Shown: positions 7,337-41,423 of the stretch, in pieces
Layout of the letters: every line of letters starts with the position of its first letter
Numbering within the stretch: position 1 is the first letter of the stretch
Source of the DNA: a virus
Lineage: Duplodnaviria > Heunggongvirae > Uroviricota > Caudoviricetes
Reading direction: 5' to 3' (one strand)
Virus record (IMG/VR): IMGVR_UViG_2861038214_000001
Coordinates: 1 to 46,563 of that record
Length of the DNA stretch: 46,563 nucleotides
Position numbers and translations under genes: made by a program
The notes under the pieces: generated by a model
Seen by the model: only the letters and a program-made list of their open reading frames with translations
Databases searched by the model: none
Told to the model about the DNA's origin: nothing

Positions 7337-7771
7337 TTATTCTTGTTCTCTGGTCAAATTATATAGTTGGAAAACAAGGATGCATATATGAATGAACGAT
7401 GCAGAGGCAATGCCGATGGCGATAGTGGGTATCATGTAGCCGCTTATGCTGGAAAGAAGCAATAACCCGCAGAAAAACAAAGCTCCAAGCTCAACAAAAC
7501 TAAGGGCATAGACAATAACTACCGATGTCATATACCCATACTCTCTAATCTTGGCCAGTCGGCGCGTTCTGCTTCCGATTAGAAACGTCAAGGCAGCAAT
7601 CAGGATTGCAATCATGGTTCCTGCATATGATGACAATGTCGCCCCAAGACCATCTCTATGAGCTGAAAAAGAAACACCAGGAATGTAGTGGCGGAAAAGG
7701 AGATAGCAAATGCTTACGATAACGTAAGGAATTATTACTATGTAAACACCAGGCATGATTCTGTTCCGCAT
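7337..7771 (-). CDS. rexB: RexB, membrane component of Rex abortive-infection/exclusion system (144 aa, about 4 TM helices)
   Basis: ORF track; size, hydrophobicity and sequence match lambda RexB as I recall it; position between cI and N. Confidence 0.8.
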   Translation of the reverse strand: MRNRIMPGVYIVIIPYVIVSICYLLFRHYIPGVSFSAHRDGLGATLSSYAGTMIAILIAALTFLIGSRTRRLAKIREYGYMTSVVIVYALSFVELGALFFCGLLLLSSISGYMIPTIAIGIASASFIHICILVFQLYNLTREQE

Positions 7772-7786
7772 AATTACTCCTGATAA

Positions 7787-8626
7787 TTAATCCTTAACTT
7801 TGCCCACCTGCCTTTTAAAACATTCCAGTATATCACTTTTCATTCTTGCGTAGCAATATGCCATCTCTTCAGCTATCTCAGCATTGGTGACCTTGTTCAG
7901 AGGCGCTGAGAGATGGCCTTTTTCTGATAGATAATGTTCTGTTAAAATATCTCCGGCCTCATCTTTTGCCCGCAGGCTAATGTCTGAAAATTGAGGTGAC
8001 GGGTTAAAAATAATATCCTTGGCAACCTTTTTTATATCCCTTTTAAATTTTGGCTTAATGACTATATCCAATGAGTCAAAAAGCTCCCCTTCAATATCTG
8101 TTGCCCCTAAGACCTTTAATATATCGCCAAATACAGGTAGCTTGGCTTCTACCTTCACCGTTGTTCGGCCGATGAAATGCATATGCATAACATCGTCTTT
8201 GGTGGTTCCCCTCATCAGTGGCTCTATCTGAACGCGCTCTCCACTGCTTAATGACATTCCTTTCCCGATTAAAAAATCTGTCAGATCGGATGTGGTCGGC
8301 CCGAAAACAGTTCTGGCAAAACCAATGGTGTCGCCTTCAACAAACAAAAAAGATGGGAATCCCAATGATTCGTCATCTGCGAGGCTGTTCTTAATATCTT
8401 CAACTGAAGCTTTAGAGCGATTTATCTTCTGAACCAGACTCTTGTCATTTGTTTTGGTAAAGAGAAAAGTTTTTCCATCGATTTTATGAATATACAAATA
8501 ATTGGAGCCAACCTGCAGGTGATGATTATCAGCCAGCAGAGAATTAAGGAAAACAGACAGGTTTATTGAGCACTTATCTTTCCCTTTATTTTTGCTGCGG
8601 TAAGTCGCATAAAAACCATTCTTCAT
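7787..8626 (-). CDS. rexA: RexA, sensor/activator of Rex exclusion system (279 aa)
   Basis: ORF track; length and sequence (MKNGFYATYRSKNKGKDK…) match lambda RexA as I recall it; AT-rich like lambda rex. Confidence 0.8.
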   Translation of the reverse strand: MKNGFYATYRSKNKGKDKCSINLSVFLNSLLADNHHLQVGSNYLYIHKIDGKTFLFTKTNDKSLVQKINRSKASVEDIKNSLADDESLGFPSFLFVEGDTIGFARTVFGPTTSDLTDFLIGKGMSLSSGERVQIEPLMRGTTKDDVMHMHFIGRTTVKVEAKLPVFGDILKVLGATDIEGELFDSLDIVIKPKFKRDIKKVAKDIIFNPSPQFSDISLRAKDEAGDILTEHYLSEKGHLSAPLNKVTNAEIAEEMAYCYARMKSDILECFKRQVGKVKD

Positions 8627-20704: not shown

Positions 20705-22120
20705 ATGAACGAAGATGATATCGCAATCGGCAGTTGCTCGCCGGAGCTGATCACGCTCCTGGACAGCGATGACATTCAGCCGGGTATGTCGGCTGGCTAT
20801 CAGACCTGCAAAACGATTTACCTCTTCCACCCGTTGGGCGGGAAAATGGTAGATCGCCCGATCAAGATGGCGATGAACGAGTCGCGCACGGTTCACATTT
20901 CGCAGGCGTATGGCATTGAGCAGCGTCTCCGCGATGCATTTGAGCGGGAGTGGAAAGCACTGGGCGCCGATAAGCACATCGCTAATGCGGCGCGCATCTC
21001 TCGCATTTACGGTGTTTCGGCGATCGCAATGCTGGTTGATAACCAGGAGCCGTCCTCTGCGGTGGACTACCGCACGCTGTATAAGCACAACGTGACATTC
21101 AACATTCTCGACCCGCTGAACACTGCCGGAAGCATCGTCCTGAACCAGGATCCGAACGCGCAGGACTTTCAGAAGGTCGACGGGATCAGAGTGGCGGGCA
21201 AGCCGTATCACAAATCCCGCTGTGTTGTGCAACAGAACGAGGACCCGATTTATCTGGCCTATAACTCTGCTGCCTTTGGCTTTACCGGTCGCAGCGTTTA
21301 CCAGCGCGCTCTGTTCCCGCTGAAATCCTTCATCCAGACCATGCGCACCGATGACATGGTTTCCGTGAAGGGTGGCTTGCTGGTAACGAAGATTCAGGGA
21401 CCGAGCTCAGTCGTCAACAACATGATGCAAAAGCTCAGCGGCATCAAACGAATGATGCTGAAGCGAGGGAAGACAGGCGAAGTCCTGCAGATCGGCGCAA
21501 ATGACAGCATCGAATCCATCGACCTGAGCAACCTGGAAAAGCCGCTCGACTCCTCCCGGAATCACATTCTGGAGAATATCGCTGCGGCAGCTGACATGCC
21601 GGCTATCATTCTGAACTCGGAAACATTCGCCCAGGGCTTCGGCGAGGGGACGGAAGACGCTCGATCTGTTGCAGTCTACATCGACAACATCCGCGAGTGG
21701 CTTGAGCCGCTGTATGACTATTTCATCCGTATTTGCCAGTATCGCGCCTGGAGCATTGAGTTTTTCAATTCTCTGCGTGCTGACTTCCCGGAGCTTAAAA
21801 ACACGTACAGCCTGTATTTCTCCTCATGGATTAACAACTTCGAATATCGCTGGCCGTCATCCCTGAAAGAGCCGGAAAGCGAAAAAGTGAAGGTCGACGA
21901 AATCCGCTTTAAGGCCATCGTCAGCATGCTGGAAGTCCTTCTCCCGCAGGTCAACACGGATGATGAGAACCGCGCTCTTCTTATCGAGTGGGCGCAGACC
22001 AACGCGAACGCTAACGAAAGCCTGTTCCCGCAGCGGCTCGATCTCGATATCGACTCTCTAAAGGCTAATCGGCCTGAACAGCCACGGGATGAAGAGCCCG
22101 GCGGCGAGATGATGCTATGA
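20705..22120 (+). CDS. portal protein (putative)
   Basis: ORF track; size and position after terminase. Confidence 0.7.
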   Translation: MNEDDIAIGSCSPELITLLDSDDIQPGMSAGYQTCKTIYLFHPLGGKMVDRPIKMAMNESRTVHISQAYGIEQRLRDAFEREWKALGADKHIANAARISRIYGVSAIAMLVDNQEPSSAVDYRTLYKHNVTFNILDPLNTAGSIVLNQDPNAQDFQKVDGIRVAGKPYHKSRCVVQQNEDPIYLAYNSAAFGFTGRSVYQRALFPLKSFIQTMRTDDMVSVKGGLLVTKIQGPSSVVNNMMQKLSGIKRMMLKRGKTGEVLQIGANDSIESIDLSNLEKPLDSSRNHILENIAAAADMPAIILNSETFAQGFGEGTEDARSVAVYIDNIREWLEPLYDYFIRICQYRAWSIEFFNSLRADFPELKNTYSLYFSSWINNFEYRWPSSLKEPESEKVKVDEIRFKAIVSMLEVLLPQVNTDDENRALLIEWAQTNANANESLFPQRLDLDIDSLKANRPEQPRDEEPGGEMML

Positions 22121-22938
22121 AGACTTTCACGCGCACCGTACGCGAGGCGGTGAAGTTCTTTCTGCGCAATGGCTACACCTCGCGGCAGGAGCTGGAGCAA
22201 TGGCAGGCCATTATCCGGCAGGCAGCCGAAAGCGAAACCGATGACGACTACATGAGCATGGTGTCGGATCGGTTGCGTAAGACCTATGACCTGCAGGTGA
22301 GCAAGGCTGGAGCGCTGGAGCGCCACAAGGGGCTTTCACGCTTCACGCTGAACTACATGGAGCCGAAGTTACGCAGCGAGCTGGATCGCCGCATCCTGGC
22401 CAGCGCTGACCTGATAAAGCTGAATCGCAAGAAAGCCATCGACACTACTCTGTCGCGGTTTAGCGGATGGGCCAGCAGCATTCCCTCAGCAGACAGCATT
22501 GCGCTGACCGGCATTCAGGGAACGATGCGGGAGACGGCGGCGCACATTCAGAAGGCCGCCGAGAAGGTGGACTATGAAGCGCGCCGCGTGATGATTGACC
22601 AGAGCCATAAGCTGATCGCCAATATCGACAACATCATCGCGACGGGCAACAACGCGATTGCTGCCGAGTGGCATAGCCACTGGCGCCAGCCAGGGTACGA
22701 CTACCGGGAAGATCACAAGGAGAGGGACAAGCTGATCTATCTCATCCGCGGGAACTGGGCGCAGAAAAATGGCTATGTCAAAGCTGGCCCTGCCGGCTAT
22801 CTCGACGAAATTACGCAGCCTGGCGAAGAGGTTTTCTGTCGGTGCTACGTCACCTATCTGTACAACCTCCGCAGCATTCCCGAGGACATGCTGACCCAGA
22901 AGGGCCGCAAGTTCCTGGAGTCCATGAAAGCAGCATAG
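22117..22938 (+). CDS. head morphogenesis protein (Mu F / SPP1 gp7-like)
   Basis: ORF track; position after portal, overlapping start (ATGA). Confidence 0.65.
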   Translation: MKTFTRTVREAVKFFLRNGYTSRQELEQWQAIIRQAAESETDDDYMSMVSDRLRKTYDLQVSKAGALERHKGLSRFTLNYMEPKLRSELDRRILASADLIKLNRKKAIDTTLSRFSGWASSIPSADSIALTGIQGTMRETAAHIQKAAEKVDYEARRVMIDQSHKLIANIDNIIATGNNAIAAEWHSHWRQPGYDYREDHKERDKLIYLIRGNWAQKNGYVKAGPAGYLDEITQPGEEVFCRCYVTYLYNLRSIPEDMLTQKGRKFLESMKAA

Positions 22939-22950
22939 GAGCATTAAAAC

Positions 22951-24564
22951 GTGGCTATTTTTGGCAGCGGGATAATGTTCCGTCAGGGGAAGTTCGTCTT
23001 CCTGATCCAGCGCTCGGATGATGGCACATGGTGCCAGCCGGGCGGGACGATAGAGCCGGGAGAGTTAGCCATAGACGCCGCACGGCGCGAGGTGCTGGAG
23101 GAAACAGGCTATCAGTACGATGGCCCGCTGACGCCGCACAGCGTACATGGTGACTACCTGACCTACCGCGCCGACGTGCCGGAGCAATTCGAAGCGAAGA
23201 TAAACGACGAATCGCTGGCCGCCGGATGGTTCCATATTGACGATCTGCCAAAGCCGCTTCATCAGCCATTCGCTGAAATGCTGGCGCAGCAGGCGCTCAA
23301 CGAAACCGACGTGGCCGCGCTCATCGCTGACGGAACGCTCAGCAGCCCGCAATATTTTTACAACATGTGGATGTTCGCCATCCGGGTGACCGGAACAGGG
23401 GTTGCCTGGCGATCTGCAGATCAGGAGATGACGTTCCGTAACCCGGACGACTATCTCACCCCTGAATTTCTCCAGCGGGTAGCTGGCGTACCACTTATCT
23501 GGCTTCACCCCGAAAAAAGAACACTTGATAGCGACGAGTTCTCAAAGCGCGTTATTGGCACCCTGACAAATGCCTGGGTTGCCGATAAGGGCGAAGTGTG
23601 GGCCGTTGCGCGTGTGTACGACGCCGAAGCTGCTGAAATTATGGCAACAAGGCAATTAAGCACCTCGCCAACTGTGAAGTTCTCAGAGGTTGCTCAATCA
23701 ATCATTGTCGACGGTCAGCCTCTACTGGTGGAGCCATCCCCCGAGCTGCTCGACCACGTTGCAATTTGTGAACAGGGCGTGTGGGACAAGCTCCTTGCCC
23801 CTACCGGTGTTAAATCTGATTCCATTCCTGAAGAGGCTGAAAAGATGGACGAGGAAAAAATCGTAGCGCTGATTAATAAGGCGATCGATGCGCGTTTGGC
23901 TAAGGCCGACGAAGAGAAGGAAGCGAAAGCCAAGGCTGACGCCGAAGAGGCCGCCAAGAAAGAAAAGGCTGACGCAGAAGACAAAGAAGCGGAAGAGGCG
24001 AAAGCTAAAGCCGACGCGGAAGAGAAAGCCGCGAAGGAAAAAGCTGATGCTGAAGCCAAAGAAAAGGCGGATGCCGAAGAGGCTGAGAAAATGGCAAAAG
24101 AAAAAGCCGACTCTCAAATCCTCCAGGAAATTGCTGAGCTTCGCTCCCGCATTCCTACCGAACTGAGCGACGAAGAGCGCAACGAAGTTGCAGAAGCGCA
24201 GGTGAAAGCCGATAGCGTCTTCTCCAGCTTTGGCAAACGCGCCCCGATCCCGCTGTCCGGTGAAAAACCGATGGCGTATCGCCGCCGTCTGATGATTCAA
24301 CTGCAGGAGCATTCTCCGGACTACAAAGCCGTCGATCTCTCTGCCATCGCTGATTCTCAACTGCTGAGCACTGCCGAAAAGCATATCTACGCTGATGCGC
24401 AGAAGGCGGCCAGCCTGTCAGTTGGTCCCGGTATGCTGCGCGAGATTAAGCGCGCCGATGCAACCGGTCGCCAGATCAGCACCTTTGAAGGCGATCCCGC
24501 CGTCACCTGGGCGCCGTTCCAGTCTGGCAAGCGTCAGGTCACCAGTTTTAACAACCAGGCTTAA
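22951..24564 (+). CDS. NUDIX hydrolase domain fused to head protease/scaffold-like protein (537 aa)
   Basis: ORF track; complete Nudix box G-x5-E-x7-REV-x-EE-x-GY ([24 protein letters not shown]) at residues about 30-53; central domain of unknown fold; KAKADAEE-type coiled-coil repeats; sits where protease/scaffold normally lies. Confidence 0.7.
23880..24125 (+). repeat. in-frame imperfect tandem repeats encoding (E/K)-A-K-A-D-A-E-E heptad-like units
   Basis: repeated GCnGAnGCnGAAGAG-type units seen in DNA and protein. Confidence 0.7.
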
Positions 24565-24579: not shown

Positions 24580-25440
24580 ATGGCTAATTTATCTCTTAAC
24601 CCGATGGCGACCACGAATGCCGCTGGTTCCTTCGGTGTGCAGTCTGATGGCTTCATTCAGGGCGTTGCTCTGGATGATCCGGCAAATCGCTTTAACCTTG
24701 CGTCCGGCACTGTCGCCGCCACCGAAACCAAACCGCTGTGGGGTGGCCTGCCGGTTGCCGAGTTGCTGCCCGGCGTGAACTCCAGTCCTCGCGGGTCGAC
24801 TATTCGTCGCGCTGTGTCACTGGCTGAACTCGAAGGCTTCACCGTCTTCAACCAGGCCCACAACGGCCTTACCACTCCGCAATCACCGGTTCCGCTGTAT
24901 GCGTCCGGCATGAGCGTTTCATTCTACCGCCTTGGATCCAACATGCGCGTTCCGCTGAAAGCTTCAGCGCAGGTGGTAGCGCTCGGAACCGCTGGCGCAT
25001 CGGTGAAAACGCCGCTAGCGTGGGACTTCGTCAATAACCAGGTGACCACCGCAGCCGCGGCGGCTTTTGCCGGTGCTGACATTGACACGACCGCTGTTAC
25101 CTACTCGAACGGCGTGGCCACCGCCACCACTGCCTCTGCACATGGTCTGACTGCAGGCCAGTACGTGAAGATCAGCGGCGTAGCTCCGGCTGCCTATAAC
25201 GGCACCGTCGTTGTGCTGACCGTACCGAGTACGACAACCTTCACCTATGCGCCTGCCAGCGCGCCGGGAGGCTCCGCGACCACGCAGGGCGCTATCGGCG
25301 CTGTGGCTCAGGCAGACATCACCCTGCCGGTGAAAGTCATCTCCATCGAGAGTGGGAACTCTAAAACTGTCAGCTATGACAGCGCTACGGGCTTCCTTAC
25401 CTGGAACAACACCGACAGCTGCGCGCTGGTCTTACTTTAA
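24580..25440 (+). CDS. head-associated structural protein with Ig-like module (decoration-like)
   Basis: ORF track; Ala/Thr/Gly-rich; shares an about 60-aa module with the 28823 and 36296 proteins. Confidence 0.55.
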   Translation: MANLSLNPMATTNAAGSFGVQSDGFIQGVALDDPANRFNLASGTVAATETKPLWGGLPVAELLPGVNSSPRGSTIRRAVSLAELEGFTVFNQAHNGLTTPQSPVPLYASGMSVSFYRLGSNMRVPLKASAQVVALGTAGASVKTPLAWDFVNNQVTTAAAAAFAGADIDTTAVTYSNGVATATTASAHGLTAGQYVKISGVAPAAYNGTVVVLTVPSTTTFTYAPASAPGGSATTQGAIGAVAQADITLPVKVISIESGNSKTVSYDSATGFLTWNNTDSCALVLL

Positions 25441-25453
25441 TCGGGAGCTTTAA

Positions 25454-26485
25454 ATGGCTGCAATTACCCCCAGCTACACCATCGTCAACCCGTCGTATAT
25501 TGCGCCGGAGTTGATCATTGGTTACCAGCAGGCGTCCGGTGCGTTCGAAACCATCGCCAGCGGTAACCCGCAGGTCCGCCTTGGCGTAGGCGACCAGTAC
25601 GTTTATATGCGCCGCCTGGATATTCGTACCCAGGTAACCTCCAGCCAGTCCGGCAACGCCAACCAGCTGCCGAGCGTGGCGCTCGAGGCGCGCATGATCT
25701 CCACTCCAACCTACCTGTTCCGCTGCCGTGGTATCTACGATCACCACGACACCGCGGCGGCCGGTAACTGGAACGTGGCACTGCCAGAAGCTCAGCGTCT
25801 CGGCATGCGTCAGGGCATCTTCCAGCAGTTGCGTTCTGCGCTGCTGTACGGCATGAACCCGGCAGGCGGCGAAGGTCTGCTGAACACCGCAGGCGCGACC
25901 ACCGAAACCCTGCCGCCGGACAGCAACAGCAACACCACTGTGCTGACCTACGACCATGGACAGATGGCTGTCTATCTGCTGGGCCATGTACAGGCCGCGC
26001 TGACCCGCACCATGCAACTGGGTCGCCAGCAGCGTGTTGTTATCCTCGGGCCGCAGCGAGTGCTGGGCGCGATGGAGATTCAGCAGATCGTTCAGCTGAC
26101 ATCTTATCAGCGTCCTGGCGGCGGTACTGATACCGTCGGCGGCACCGTGAAAGAGGTTCTCCGTGGCGCGAATGTTCAGGTTGACTGGGTGTACGACGAC
26201 ACGCTGATCGGCGCCGGTGCCGGCGGTACTGACGCGGTGGTTATCACCATCCCGGAAGTTGAAGTGCCGATGGTTAACTCCACCGTGAACACCAACGAAT
26301 TCGCCAAACTGAGCCCGTCTCTGGCGGCTAATGCCCTGATGTTCACCGACATGGCGGCACCGATGGAAATCCCGACGCCAATCCCCGGGGGCGCTATCGA
26401 CGTGCTGTCAGAAATGCGCTCTACGGCTGGCTGGGCAGTCCGTCCGGAAGCTATCACCATCCTGTCGATGAAATACAGCGACTAA
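25454..26485 (+). CDS. major capsid protein (putative)
   Basis: ORF track; size, position, strong terminator immediately downstream. Confidence 0.7.
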   Translation: MAAITPSYTIVNPSYIAPELIIGYQQASGAFETIASGNPQVRLGVGDQYVYMRRLDIRTQVTSSQSGNANQLPSVALEARMISTPTYLFRCRGIYDHHDTAAAGNWNVALPEAQRLGMRQGIFQQLRSALLYGMNPAGGEGLLNTAGATTETLPPDSNSNTTVLTYDHGQMAVYLLGHVQAALTRTMQLGRQQRVVILGPQRVLGAMEIQQIVQLTSYQRPGGGTDTVGGTVKEVLRGANVQVDWVYDDTLIGAGAGGTDAVVITIPEVEVPMVNSTVNTNEFAKLSPSLAANALMFTDMAAPMEIPTPIPGGAIDVLSEMRSTAGWAVRPEAITILSMKYSD

Positions 26486-35970: not shown

Positions 35971-36299
35971 GAACCTATGGCCGAAACTCTGAGGGGAAGT
36001 GGGTCCTGGTGGAAACCGACGAAAATGGGTTTAATGACTCGGTGTATTTGACCACCCTGATCCAGAATCTGAAACTGGCGCCTCAGGAGTCGCCATTTTA
36101 CGCCAATAACGGAATCCCGGCCGCCGGGTCGGTGATCCAGCAAATCCTGCCGACGTATTACGTAAACCGTATTCAGAAACAGTTCAGCCAGTATTTTTCC
36201 TCGCTGCAGATTGCGCTGATCAGCGACGACCCGCCTGTTTATAACATCTCGGCAATCACAAACGCAGGTTCAAAAATAATTACACAGGTGGCCGTATGA
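35967..36299 (+). CDS. small baseplate protein (110 aa)
   Basis: ORF track. Confidence 0.5.
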   Translation: MRTYGRNSEGKWVLVETDENGFNDSVYLTTLIQNLKLAPQESPFYANNGIPAAGSVIQQILPTYYVNRIQKQFSQYFSSLQIALISDDPPVYNISAITNAGSKIITQVAV

Positions 36300-37714
36300 G
36301 CGATTTACCAGTCAGCTATACGTCAGCAGGCCCGGTTCCTCTGACGCCGGAAGAGCTAAGAGCACAGCTCGTTTCTCAGGCAATTGCGTTATCTCCGGGA
36401 CTCACCACGGATTTGCCTGGCTCTCTGATTGAAGACGTGGCCAGCACTGATGTCGGCGCACTTATCGTCTGCGATCAGGCGAGGGTTGACCTTATTAACT
36501 CGGTGGGGCCGCTAAAGGCTAACCTGTCCATGCTGGAGCTTCTTGCACAGCAGGCTGGTATCCCTGGGCAGAAAACGGCTGGCACAACAACAGTCCCGGT
36601 TCAGTTTTCCGGCCCGGCGGGATTTGTTATCCCACAGGGGTTTATTGTTTCAGATGGGACCTATACCTATTCAGTCAGTGATGCGACGATTATCTCGTCG
36701 TCTGGAGTATCTGCCAGCGTATCATGCGAGGGAACGGAGACCGGAACCTGGGCGGTGCCGGTAAATACGGTTAACCAGATCATATCCAGTCTACCGTCTG
36801 ACGTCACCATCACCTGCACCAACCCGATCGCCGGCACTCCGGGTGCTGACCCGGAAACGAACTATCAGTTTCGTGATCGCGTATGGCAGGCGCAGATGGC
36901 CACCGTTCAGGGATATCCTGGATTTATCCGGCAATATCTCACCAGCCTTGATAACGTGCAGGCGCGCCTGGTTTCTGTCATTCAGGACGGGGATAAGTGG
37001 ATAGTCATGTGTGCCGGCGGTGATATTTACGATATTGCTGGCGCGCTCTATAAGTCTGCGGGGGATATCAGCAGGCTGAAAGGGTGTTCACTGAACGTAA
37101 CGGGGATCACGAATGCAAATCCTGGTGTCGTCAGCACAGACCTGACTCATGGTTACACTGACGGCCAGGTTATCCGGATCACTGGCGTTACCGGGATGAC
37201 GGGCATCAATGACGTTCCTCTGACCGTGACGGTGCTGTCTCCTCACACTTTTTCCATCGGGATTGATACCACTTCATCCGGGACTTGGGGAGGCGGCGGC
37301 GAGGTGACACCGAACGTCAGAAACAATACCGTGACGGTGAATGACTGGCCTGATAACTACGTGATCCCGTTCGTGACCCCATTGCTGCAGCGGGTCACAG
37401 TGACGTATCAGTGGGGCACTGAAAGCGTTAACTACCTGACTGATGCCACGGTCGCCTCTTTGGTCTCGGCGCCTACGATTCAGTATGTGAATGGCATATT
37501 CGCCGGTAAACCGCTGAACGTTAACAACCTGAAAGATGCATTCTTGCAGGCGATTAACTCGACAATCGACATGGGGCTGATCAGCACTCTAAACGTCGTG
37601 GTCACCGTCAATGGTGTGATAACGCCACCGGATGCCGGGACGAATATCATCAGCGGGGATAAGTTCAGTTATTTTTATATCGCGTCGGATGGCGTGATCG
37701 TAACAGGGGCGTAG
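36296..37714 (+). CDS. baseplate J-like protein (putative), contains Ig-like module
   Basis: ORF track; size/synteny; shares module with 24580 and 28823 proteins. Confidence 0.5.
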   Translation: MSDLPVSYTSAGPVPLTPEELRAQLVSQAIALSPGLTTDLPGSLIEDVASTDVGALIVCDQARVDLINSVGPLKANLSMLELLAQQAGIPGQKTAGTTTVPVQFSGPAGFVIPQGFIVSDGTYTYSVSDATIISSSGVSASVSCEGTETGTWAVPVNTVNQIISSLPSDVTITCTNPIAGTPGADPETNYQFRDRVWQAQMATVQGYPGFIRQYLTSLDNVQARLVSVIQDGDKWIVMCAGGDIYDIAGALYKSAGDISRLKGCSLNVTGITNANPGVVSTDLTHGYTDGQVIRITGVTGMTGINDVPLTVTVLSPHTFSIGIDTTSSGTWGGGGEVTPNVRNNTVTVNDWPDNYVIPFVTPLLQRVTVTYQWGTESVNYLTDATVASLVSAPTIQYVNGIFAGKPLNVNNLKDAFLQAINSTIDMGLISTLNVVVTVNGVITPPDAGTNIISGDKFSYFYIASDGVIVTGA

Positions 37715-39180: not shown

Positions 39181-39229
39181 ATCAAAGCCCACGCCAGTGG
39201 GATTTCATAAATAACACATTGATAACATC

Positions 39230-39254
39230 AAACCCGCTTCGGCGGGTTTTTTTT
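39230..39254 (+). terminator. intrinsic terminator (AAACCCGC-TTCG-GCGGG + T8)
   Basis: seen in sequence after moron. Confidence 0.7.
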
Positions 39255-39275
39255 ATGCCTAAATCCGGAGGAGAC

Positions 39276-41423
39276 ATGGCACTAACCCTTTTGGCTACAA
39301 ACAACGCAGAAAGCACGCTGGCTTCTGCTATCAGCGCAACCGACACGTCGCTGATCGTTAGCGCTGGAACTGGTGCCGAGTTCCCTGATGCTGTGGCAGG
39401 CGAGAGTTATTTTAAGCTCACTCTCACCGATGCCGCCACCGGCTCACAGGTTGAGATCGTGAACGTGACAGCTAAGGCTGGAGACATCTTCACGATTGAG
39501 CGTGCGCAGGAAGGAACGCTGGCGCGTGCGTGGGCGGCCAATGATATGGTTGCCAACATGATGACGGCGGACACGCTGAACATTATCGCTCAATATTCCC
39601 AGCAGGCAGCTGCATCAGCAGCACTGGCTGAAGAGTATGCAGATAACGCTTCTGACTACGCACAGAATAAGTTCACGTTCTATAAGACTGCCAGCGATCC
39701 TGATGGCACCATCGCAGGGCTGGCAGCAACTACTGACGGCCAGTCTTTCTGGGTAGCCCAGGGTCCGGATGCGCTTTCTTCTGCATGGCAGTATCAAAAC
39801 AAAGCAGGCGTGGCCGTATTGCAGGCGAAGCAGCCGGGTACAGCGGCCATAACAGGGACAACCCGCGAGTTTCCGACGCTGGCTGCGGCACAGGCTGATG
39901 CTGACGCAGGGAATATACAACCAGGAGCGAAATGCTGGGTGACAAGCGCGGATGATAGCTCTCTTGCAAATGAATATATAAACAACTCCGGAACTTTGCA
40001 GCCTACAGGAGTAATCTCTCCTTCTTCAAAAACAATCGATAATAAAATTAATGAACGCCTCGTCCCAGGTGAATACAGGCCTGGTTATTTCCCGGCCTTC
40101 TTTGACAGGAATGGTATGGTGCCAGCATGGTTTGATGGCGGCAAATTTGATGTGGCAGGACTGGGGCCAAATGTTACACAGGTTGTTTCTGAAATTCCAA
40201 ACGAATGGGCCCAGAAGTTTATCCCGCAAGGAGACTTTTCACCTTATTACTTTCCTTTTTTATATGACCAACAAGGGAACGTATATGCTTGGTTTAATGG
40301 TGGGCTATTCGATGCTCCAGGTCTTGGCCCGGTATTGCAGGAATATGTCAAAAACCTGGTGTCTGGTGGGGAAGTTGATGCGGTACGTTCCTTCATCGAA
40401 GGAGATCAGTACAAGTTCCTTTTCAAAAATAGCCGTATTTTTGCTGGCCAGTCTACCAGCCTAAACATTGCTTTTACCGGCGATTCGTGGACAGAGAAAA
40501 ACACCATTCCTCAGTCTTTAATTAATATTCTTGGTGGTACATACAAAGACCCTGGGTGGATTAGTTGTTCAAACAGAACAGATGGTGTCATGTCTGGAAT
40601 ATCACCAGTAACCGCAACAAACTTTACGAAATATGACGGTGGCAGCAATAACACGAACATTCCGCCGTATGGCTGTGGCCCTGATGGCAACGGATACTAC
40701 AACAACAACACTGTTGGTTCGCTCGTATGGACGGGCGTGACCGTAACAAATCTTTCGGTATTTTACTATGATGGGTCTGGAACGTTCACCATCACCATCG
40801 ACAGCAATGCACCTGTAACAATCACGGGAGGGAATACAGGGACTGCCAAGAAGTATGATTTCAGCGGACTTAGCGCTACTGCACATACGGTGACAATCCA
40901 AAGCACCGGTACTGGTGTTGTTTCCATTCTTGGTATGTATGGTAAAAATAACTCAATATCATCAGGGGTGACTGTATCCAGGATGGGTAATGGAGGAGCA
41001 TTTGCAAGTGACTATTTCAACTTTTCATCATGGATAAAGCCAGTAGCTCAATACCTTGATATAGACCTCCTTTTTATTATTCTTGGAACGAATGACTTCC
41101 GGATGAGTCAGGGGCTAGCTGAGTACAAATCTGGGATTATTGAAATAATTACTAAATATAGAAGCGCAACTCCTGATATTTGCATTTGCCTTATGTCCCC
41201 TGCACAGTGTAACGCCACAGGAACACCCGCACTGTCAGAATACGATAAAGCAATGAGGGAAATAGCGGTTGAATATAATGTAAATTTCATTAGTGGTTAT
41301 CAATTATTCCCCAAAGTGTATAGCAGTTCAGGAGGTGCGTGGGAAGATGCCTTGCATCTTAGCGCCTTGGGCGCATATGTACTAACGAGAAAGATCAAAA
41401 AAGAATTTTTCCTGGGAGCTTAA
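39276..41423 (+). CDS. tailspike/tail fiber with conserved N-terminal anchor domain and C-terminal SGNH/GDSL esterase domain
   Basis: ORF track 39219..41423 trimmed to ATG after GGAGGAG SD; GDS motif (IAFTGDSWTE) and DxxH (WEDALHL) near C-terminus. Confidence 0.75.
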   Translation: MALTLLATNNAESTLASAISATDTSLIVSAGTGAEFPDAVAGESYFKLTLTDAATGSQVEIVNVTAKAGDIFTIERAQEGTLARAWAANDMVANMMTADTLNIIAQYSQQAAASAALAEEYADNASDYAQNKFTFYKTASDPDGTIAGLAATTDGQSFWVAQGPDALSSAWQYQNKAGVAVLQAKQPGTAAITGTTREFPTLAAAQADADAGNIQPGAKCWVTSADDSSLANEYINNSGTLQPTGVISPSSKTIDNKINERLVPGEYRPGYFPAFFDRNGMVPAWFDGGKFDVAGLGPNVTQVVSEIPNEWAQKFIPQGDFSPYYFPFLYDQQGNVYAWFNGGLFDAPGLGPVLQEYVKNLVSGGEVDAVRSFIEGDQYKFLFKNSRIFAGQSTSLNIAFTGDSWTEKNTIPQSLINILGGTYKDPGWISCSNRTDGVMSGISPVTATNFTKYDGGSNNTNIPPYGCGPDGNGYYNNNTVGSLVWTGVTVTNLSVFYYDGSGTFTITIDSNAPVTITGGNTGTAKKYDFSGLSATAHTVTIQSTGTGVVSILGMYGKNNSISSGVTVSRMGNGGAFASDYFNFSSWIKPVAQYLDIDLLFIILGTNDFRMSQGLAEYKSGIIEIITKYRSATPDICICLMSPAQCNATGTPALSEYDKAMREIAVEYNVNFISGYQLFPKVYSSSGGAWEDALHLSALGAYVLTRKIKKEFFLGA

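Follow-up and report, generated by a model that had tools for sequence, protein, structure and literature searches.

What does a long, repetitive and highly charged stretch do in the middle of a phage head gene? The question is raised by a virus of the class Caudoviricetes, namely the IMG/VR record IMGVR_UViG_2861038214_000001, the whole 46,563 nucleotides (nt) of which are hereafter called the window. In its plus-strand open reading frame (ORF) at 22951-24564, the region 23880-24125, corresponding to amino acids (aa) 310-392, is made of repeats that keep to the reading frame. A first-pass annotation of this DNA had seen there a scaffold-like region with a low-complexity coiled coil, encoded by a tandem array prone to copy-number variation. 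The follow-up analysis leads to a different view, i.e., the repeat block is probably the charged, Ala-rich spacer of a phage scaffolding protein, carried by a polyprotein in which a NUDIX domain, a putative protease, a linker and a C-terminal domain follow one another, and within which a shorter scaffold would be translated from an internal start at M299. As for the repeats, they are real but old and degenerate, that is to say ordinary biology and no hypervariable locus.

A proposed protease-scaffold gene with a predicted nested start

From its N-terminus onwards, the gene product comprises a NUDIX domain, a prohead protease domain of assemblin fold, a charged linker and a C-terminal domain. 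These parts, together with the elements of the predicted nested gene, are located as follows:

22951..24564, plus strand: full-length gene, 537 aa, GTG start (RefSeq coding sequence with the same coordinates, named 'NUDIX hydrolase')
22975..23286, plus strand: NUDIX domain, aa 9-112 (Pfam, 60.1 bits)
23296..23826, plus strand: DUF2213/Pa193_gp24 (PF09979) domain, putative capsid maturation protease, aa 116-292 (Pfam)
23833..23836, plus strand: Shine-Dalgarno (SD)-like GAGG, 8 nt upstream of the internal ATG (23845)
23845..24564, plus strand: predicted nested in-frame gene, M299 to stop, 239 aa (amphipathic helix, repeat array and C-terminal domain)
23851..23898, plus strand: amphipathic helix, aa 301-316 (family consensus L..L..RMDAxE; AlphaFold helix 301-336)
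23902..24111, plus strand: seven K-A-D-(A-E-E) units, presumed charged Ala-rich spacer, aa 318-387
24142..24561, plus strand: conserved C-terminal domain, aa 398-537 (helices 407-425, 440-454 and 469-489 plus a beta hairpin, modelled with high confidence, i.e., high predicted local distance difference test or pLDDT)

Over its full length, the protein matches phrog_6216, a PHROGs family listed with unknown function (E 6.6e-246), and aa 160-418 show weaker matches to PHROGs families of 'head maturation protease'. In the N-terminal domain, the Nudix box is intact (G32x5E38x7R46E47VxE50E51xG53Y) and, along with the fold, agrees with the definition of the NUDIX superfamily (GX5EX7REUXEEXGU). A NUDIX domain with an intact box is fused in 136 of 150 family representatives, and a PHROGs 'portal protein' family, phrog_15528, also matches this part of the protein; such a fusion to a protease-scaffold suggests an enzyme targeted to the capsid interior. 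Downstream of it, PF09979 is recognised over aa 159-276 with 25.3 bits (gathering cutoff 22), and homologues carry PF09979 in precomputed annotations. Across the family, H186, S237 and S239 never vary and H269 hardly does; they follow one another in the order His..Ser..His, from which we infer a serine protease centre. The structure matches in BFVD are prohead proteases, T4 gp21 being the closest; the domain has the assemblin fold, and its proteolytic activity is putative. The C-terminal domain is present in 150/150 representatives.

The family is large: at E<1e-30, the gene has matches in over 500 clusters of proteins built at 50% identity. A tblastn search of isolated phages returned only 14 records, so that most of the diversity lies in prophages and metagenomes; a scan with the distant member P0161 returned only 5 loci. 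With respect to the literature, the NUDIX plus DUF2213 architecture is only mentioned as existing, in a transposon sequencing paper (PMC8770471), no functional study was found for DUF2213 or XkdF, and a paper on polyvalent proteins does not cover the NUDIX/DUF2213 fusion. Sequence searches of the PDB with the protein and with family profiles retrieved neither a solved relative of the linker or C-terminal domain nor the Pa193 gp24 structure 9B40, with NUDIX matches swamping one profile, and a NUDIX-free profile gave only composition-driven matches (E at least 0.6).

Downstream of the protease domain lies a predicted in-frame internal start with an SD-like ribosome-binding site, 19 residues ahead of the first repeat unit, in a gene located between those of the portal and the major capsid protein, i.e., where a nested protease-scaffold pair is expected. 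In the column of M299, Met is found in 88/107 family members and Val in 13/107, compared with an overall Met frequency of 2.7%, and the preceding columns 288-298 are variable. GAGG stands 8-9 nt upstream in all 26 distinct DNA contexts (relatives at 54-100% identity), with differing encoded residues, and the mean predicted energy of the duplex with the anti-SD sequence is -6.0 kcal/mol, the mean at other ATGs of the frame being -1.0. In 62/62 unique genes, Glu295 is encoded by GAG, the codon that supplies this motif, while only 2/42 conserved Glu codons are invariant. Among 12 distant metagenomic loci, 11 have a motif of GGAGG, AGGAG or GAGGT type before the equivalent ATG (-6.2 to -10.8 kcal/mol). 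With Met and SD motif both conserved, M299 is predicted to be translated as a start, and a separate scaffold protein of 239 aa is most likely its product.

Put together, the proposed polyprotein would consist of four parts, namely the NUDIX domain, a maturation protease of the T4 gp21/herpesvirus assemblin fold, a linker of about 105 aa and the C-terminal domain, where the linker would be formed of one amphipathic helix followed by seven units of K-A-D-A-E type. Initiation at M299 would release a second product, a scaffold beginning with the amphipathic helix and the repeat block. Many copies of this scaffold and fewer copies of the scaffold-tethered protease (plus NUDIX) would co-assemble in the procapsid, as in the UL26/UL26.5, lambda C/Nu3 and Mu I/Z systems; there, the repeat block would keep the oligomerising helix at a distance from the C-terminal domain.

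The proposal matters first for annotation. A widespread gene labelled 'NUDIX hydrolase', 'glycosyl transferase' or 'TolA protein' would be the head maturation protease plus scaffold of a group of prophages, and the nested scaffold gene has probably been overlooked by gene callers. Orthologues named 'glycosyl transferase' or 'TolA protein' are those of Yersinia phage vB_YenM_29.18 (L005, 3001-4632), Escherichia phage Rac-SA53 and Actinobacillus phage vB_Apl-pPE4.

Old repeats under purifying selection

In-frame, imperfect repeats had been claimed for this region and are indeed there, as seven copies of the tripeptide Lys-Ala-Asp (KAD) starting at aa 318, 328, 339, 353, 364, 372 and 385 (nt 23902-24111). 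With spacings of 10, 11, 14, 11, 8 and 13 aa, i.e., an irregular 8-14 codons, the array has no single period. The consensus of the unit is (A/E)K(A/E)KADAE(E/A/D), close to but not the same as the (E/K)AKADAEE first proposed, and one unit is listed as KEKADSQ. Tandem Repeats Finder (TRF) reported 23923-24063 with a period of 75 (1.9 copies, 78% matches) and 23910-23996 with a period of 33 (2.6 copies, 64% matches), in addition to a period of 9, all three being multiples of 3. Three repeat features of the DNA can be distinguished:

23923..24072, plus strand: old duplication of a 75-nt (25-codon) double unit (TRF, pairwise alignment, repeat search)
23983..24004, plus strand: 9-nt micro-repeat, period 9, 2.4 copies (TRF)
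24076..24105, plus strand: 80% copy of 23830-23859, bearing a second GAGG and ATG (M381, ATG at 24091) (repeat search)

At the protein level, KADAE occurs five times and KAD seven times, which was reached in 12 and 216, respectively, of 10,000 residue shuffles of the region. In the DNA, no exact direct repeat exceeds 11 nt, a length typical of codon shuffles (mode 10, commonly 9-12), and only 56 of 75 bases are identical between the two copies of the 75-nt unit in pairwise alignment. As such, long near-identical copies of the kind that permit slippage or unequal recombination are absent from the array, and the KAD units are most likely old duplications which have since drifted at synonymous sites.

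The chance that the repeat is an artefact of assembly or sequencing is practically nil. The gene was found in 48 of 5,426 complete Escherichia coli genomes, and 42 of these 48 carry the same stretch of 601 nt with length unchanged, the others differing by 3-12 nt from the length in the window; the same stretch is 99.4% identical in phage vB_Kpn_Chronis. A collapse of the repeat region on resequencing, i.e., the outcome named beforehand as fatal to the repeats, is effectively refuted by such identical or near-identical sequences of the same length in independent assemblies, comprising dozens of complete genomes and three isolated Klebsiella phages.

Across the KAD core, the gene frame is under purifying selection. 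When compared with three relatives, differences at codon positions 1, 2 and 3 number 3/5/28 (L003), 3/9/31 and 9/14/39, and synonymous to non-synonymous codon changes 24:6 (L003), 23:11 and 26:16. Against L003, the closest of the three, the figures of the core are similar to those of the folded domains, and they are somewhat more relaxed against the two more distant relatives. The repeats had also been held to explain the antisense shadow ORFs of this region, of which the following were listed, together with one on the gene strand:

23722..24384, minus strand: shadow ORF, 220 aa, non-coding (ORF listing, stop map, third-position substitutions)
23715..24059, minus strand: shadow ORF, 114 aa, overlapping the 220-aa one, non-coding
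23888..24166, plus strand: shadow ORF, 92 aa, in the +1 frame, with a Lys/Arg-rich translation, non-coding

T makes up 4.7% of the bases in 23900-24110 vs 18.4% in the whole gene and, because every stop codon on either strand requires a T on the plus strand, four of the six frames are open across the repeat block in the stop-codon map. The explanation holds insofar as T-poor sequence leaves frames open, but only in part, since the 220-aa ORF runs well beyond the repeats. A coding function for the shadow ORFs was rejected, as substitutions concentrate at the third positions of the plus-strand gene frame.

Unit number among relatives

Among 120 cluster representatives of at least 96% identity, seven KAD units are present in 111 of the 118 scorable sequences, and the other seven have six units through point substitution in one unit. 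Throughout these representatives, the region is 70-74 aa long and differs only by the change of 1 aa, by a duplicated AEE (3 aa) at the site of period 9 or by a patch of 4 aa. The AEE insertion at the micro-repeat of 23983-24004 occurs in P0005 and L032, and JNQH497 has a single extra Glu. In IMG/VR relatives of 54-100% identity, linkers measured between the P.GV and 'P..SD' anchors are 98-135 aa long with 5-7 KAD units; the linker of the window is 114 aa by these anchors and 105 aa when measured as query aa 292-398. Insertions and deletions at the scale of a unit are confined to 54-92% identity, with one clear case, i.e., L029, which is without 19 aa present in L019. Thus, copy-number variation, as predicted for related prophages, finds weak support among distant ones and none of that scale among close relatives, where the number is fixed at seven in nearly all; unit number changes slowly and there is no contingency-type locus.

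In seven relatives (L022, L034, L036, L037, L073, L062 and L005), KAD units 5-6 are replaced by ELKKLE(H/N)EAKGEDD(R/K/H)LE(R/K)ERKER, and this charged-insert sub-lineage suggests patchwise recombination inside the linker.

In the wider family, the linkers of the 150 representatives range from 79 to 245 aa (measured as query aa 292 to 398). They contain 0-14 copies of [KR]xD[AS] at irregular spacing, with a mean of 6.5 per linker vs 0.93 in shuffles. In 146/150 of these diverse linkers, the motif exceeds the expectation from composition about 7-fold, and per 100 aa there are 4.77 copies in linkers vs 0.33 in the rest of the same proteins.

Physical character of the repeat block

The 72-aa core of the block (aa 317-388) is 62.5% charged and 35% Ala, has a net charge of -9 and contains M381 as its sole strongly hydrophobic residue. 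No apolar periodicity at 3.5 or 7 residues was found in it (spectral power 0.12 and 0.38, respectively; shuffle mean maximum 1.06). Opposite charges are paired 27 times at i,i+4, vs 12.9 +/- 2.7 in shuffles (z about 5), and only 6 times at i,i+3, vs 13.1 in shuffles; the i,i+4 excess is found family-wide (mean z 2.46). Such an excess together with the depletion at i,i+3 is the signature of helix-stabilising salt bridges and not of a coiled coil. As such, the coiled coil of the first-pass annotation is not supported, a hydrophobic seam being contradicted by a core with a single hydrophobic residue and no heptad periodicity. Judging from composition and charge pattern, the repeat block is most likely a single helix stabilised by salt bridges or, alternatively, a tether that is flexible and acidic.

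An AlphaFold model of the 537-aa protein (mean pLDDT 87.5) places helices at 301-336 and 376-400, KAD units included. A match to the TolA domain II model TIGR02794 (E 8.4e-11) reaches 41.7 bits for a cutoff of 59.45. Being below threshold and compositional, it does not indicate homology, and a true TolA relationship was rejected. The homologue is called 'TolA protein' in two phage records, a label that stems from the Ala/Lys/Glu-rich linker.

Weighing the explanations

The idea that the block forms a coiled coil and is encoded by an unstable tandem array, with copy number readily varying between prophages, can draw on the fact that scaffolding proteins are often elongated helical oligomers (phi29, P22; cited in PMC11456595), on the few indels recorded above (the 19 aa that distinguish L019 from L029, the AEE and Glu insertions, the range of linker lengths) and on the 0-14 motifs per linker in the wider family. 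It nonetheless appears improbable in the face of a core devoid of heptads, of exact DNA repeats no longer than those of codon shuffles, of a unit number kept at seven in most close relatives, of a length that is constant in 42 of the 48 E. coli genomes, and of a purifying selection comparable to that of the folded domains for the closest relative. Alternatively, the block could be an intrinsically disordered acidic tether, with an entropic, space-filling or DNA-excluding role in the procapsid, which would collapse or be expelled at maturation. The stretch of aa 337-375, modelled by AlphaFold without secondary structure and with a pLDDT of 42-52, would fit this explanation, as would the net charge of -9 over 72 aa and the wide variation of family linkers in length and sequence; low pLDDT may however reflect a multiple sequence alignment that is poorly alignable here, the charge pairing is what is expected for helix salt bridges, Ala is abundant, Pro and Gly amount to only 6.4% of the family linkers, and the two modelled helices cover KAD units. 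Disorder of this kind is considered somewhat unlikely, though a serious alternative to the presumed helical state of the block.

It is unlikely, though compatible with the spacer model, that [KR]-x-D-[AS]-E is a functional short linear motif, possibly a set of scaffold cleavage sites for the fused protease. The 7-fold enrichment in nearly all linkers and the irregular spacing, which is expected of a motif rather than of a structural repeat, speak for it, and so does the preference of T4 gp21, a protease that cuts small-x-Glu sites on the C-terminal side of Glu and breaks down gp22, the charged core scaffold. The enrichment could equally stem from repeated duplication of one unit combined with selection for salt bridges, however, and in the major capsid protein, the only head protein scanned for it, no copy was seen in the translation of the N-terminal ~60 residues. 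A further reading takes the polyprotein as a delivery device, by which the NUDIX domain would be carried into the procapsid, freed by cleavage of the [KR]xD[AS]E ladder, which would also dismantle the scaffold, and then ejected with the DNA. The frequency of the NUDIX fusion, the match to phrog_15528 and the motif enrichment leave room for it, but it is quite unlikely; were it true, the targets of the ejected NUDIX, right from the start of infection, could be nucleotide signals of the host or molecules capped with NAD or nucleotides.

The preferred reading, that of a charged spacer in a protease-scaffold polyprotein with a nested scaffold, has its own difficulties. The central part of the block, aa 337-375, may be disordered, and the core is Asp/Ala-rich, unlike classic E/K/R single alpha-helices. 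With respect to the internal start, the SD is weak (-2.9) at one distant locus, L095, and the second GAGG plus ATG at M381 indicates that duplication inside this very sequence can give rise to motifs of the kind. One other in-frame ATG does reach -5.8 kcal/mol, which would be that of M381 given the repeated GAGG..ATG; M381 was rejected as a conserved second start, being replaced or absent in L048, L054, L056 and L067. As regards Pa193 gp24, the putative scaffolding protein whose name Pfam gives to PF09979 ('Pa193_gp24'), the sequence match is weak (hhalign probability 49%, E 1.7e-4) and the paper on its cryo-electron microscopy structure makes no mention of a protease (PMC11456595). These points weigh against the scaffold reading, which is still considered likely, the spacer role of the repeats being presumed. 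Spacers that are charged, repetitive and helical are frequent among scaffolding proteins, and the present one is stable; the fused NUDIX domain raises the question of whether enzymes are routinely packaged into heads by this route.

Head module and prophage layout

The designation of the region as scaffold-like proved right, in that the gene is the protease-scaffold gene of a head module and belongs to the family named after Pa193 gp24. In this module, the order is terminase, portal, MuF-like protein, protease-scaffold gene, 286-aa protein and major capsid protein, and it is kept in relatives at 37-47% identity. The neighbouring genes are:

20705..22120, plus strand: portal protein, PF06381 (DUF1073/Phage_portal_3) (Chronis annotation; PF06381 gene at the same place in distant relatives)
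22117..22938, plus strand: MuF/SPP1 gp7-like head morphogenesis protein (phrog_324, E 4.4e-29)
24580..25440, plus strand: 286-aa protein at the place of the Pa193 decoration protein (phrog_6268)
25454..26485, plus strand: major capsid protein, DUF2184/PF09950 (Pfam, PHROGs, RefSeq)

RefSeq names the gene at the portal position (20705-22120) 'anti-CBASS protein Acb1 family protein', apparently a carried-over name rather than the mark of a true Acb1. In the 286-aa protein (24580-25440), the segment of aa 165-240 resembles families of virion structural and tail fibre proteins. More broadly, an early region of lambdoid type (rexB, rexA, cI-like repressor, cII, nin region, Q and lambda-type lysis genes, as seen from 7337-8626 and the overall layout) goes together in this prophage with a structural module of Chronis type, and the integrase gene intS is found at the right end. 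Genes of the tail region at 36296-37714 and 39219-41423 are named 'ubiquitin-activating E1 FCCH domain-containing protein' and 'SGNH/GDSL hydrolase family protein'.

Comparison with known systems

By its charge and Ala richness, its i,i+4 pairs and its lack of a hydrophobic seam, the repeat block resembles both the charged single alpha-helix (SAH, or ER/K) domains (PMC5812594, PMC5347031) and TolA domain II. From SAH domains, it differs in being rich in Asp and Ala instead of Glu, Arg and Lys, and in the uncertainty of AlphaFold for aa 337-375.

Considering the gene as a whole, the arrangement is alike to that of the herpesvirus UL26/UL26.5 pair, where a protease-scaffold gene contains a nested in-frame scaffold gene (PMC11565193). 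Sequence similarity to that system is undetectable, though, and herpesviruses have neither the NUDIX domain nor the K-A-D-A-E array; moreover, their short product comes from a transcript of its own, whereas here an internal SD and ATG on the same mRNA are predicted. In T4, the protease gp21 and the scaffold gp22 are encoded by separate genes, while here the two are fused with a predicted nested start, and sequence identity to gp21 is 9%. The pairs C/Nu3 of lambda and I/Z of Mu each make their scaffold from an internal start, as the C-terminal portion of the protease frame. The genetic logic is the same as the one predicted here and the sequences are unrelated; lambda C, for its part, belongs to a different protease fold family.

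Another counterpart, very distantly related, is Pa193 gp24, of the same Pfam family and with the same gene order, i.e., a gp24-type gene, then decoration and major capsid genes (PMC11456595). In this putative scaffolding protein, residues 286-326 form a helix-turn-helix pentamer under the five-fold vertex of the capsid (PMC11456595), and the amphipathic 'interior helix' of its linker, by which it pentamerises (residues 306-326), appears, as judged by eye, to resemble the helix of aa 301-316. RefSeq names Pa193 gp24 a head maturation protease (L101 12595-14031). Its conserved His/Ser/His motifs align with those of the family, and an SD-like GAGGG precedes M195, just past the protease domain. 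It could likewise be a fused protease and scaffold with a start nested inside. On the other hand, it is without a NUDIX domain, and its linker is acidic, contains Gly, Ser and Pro and has no K-A-D-A-E repeats. Taken more widely, the comparison suggests that in 'scaffolding proteins' of the Pa193 gp24 type, a protease of the assemblin lineage is fused to the scaffold. Repetitive charged spacers in scaffolds, fusions of protease and scaffold, and nested genes for the scaffold all belong to known kinds; what is new is this widespread member, the annotation of which is misleading.

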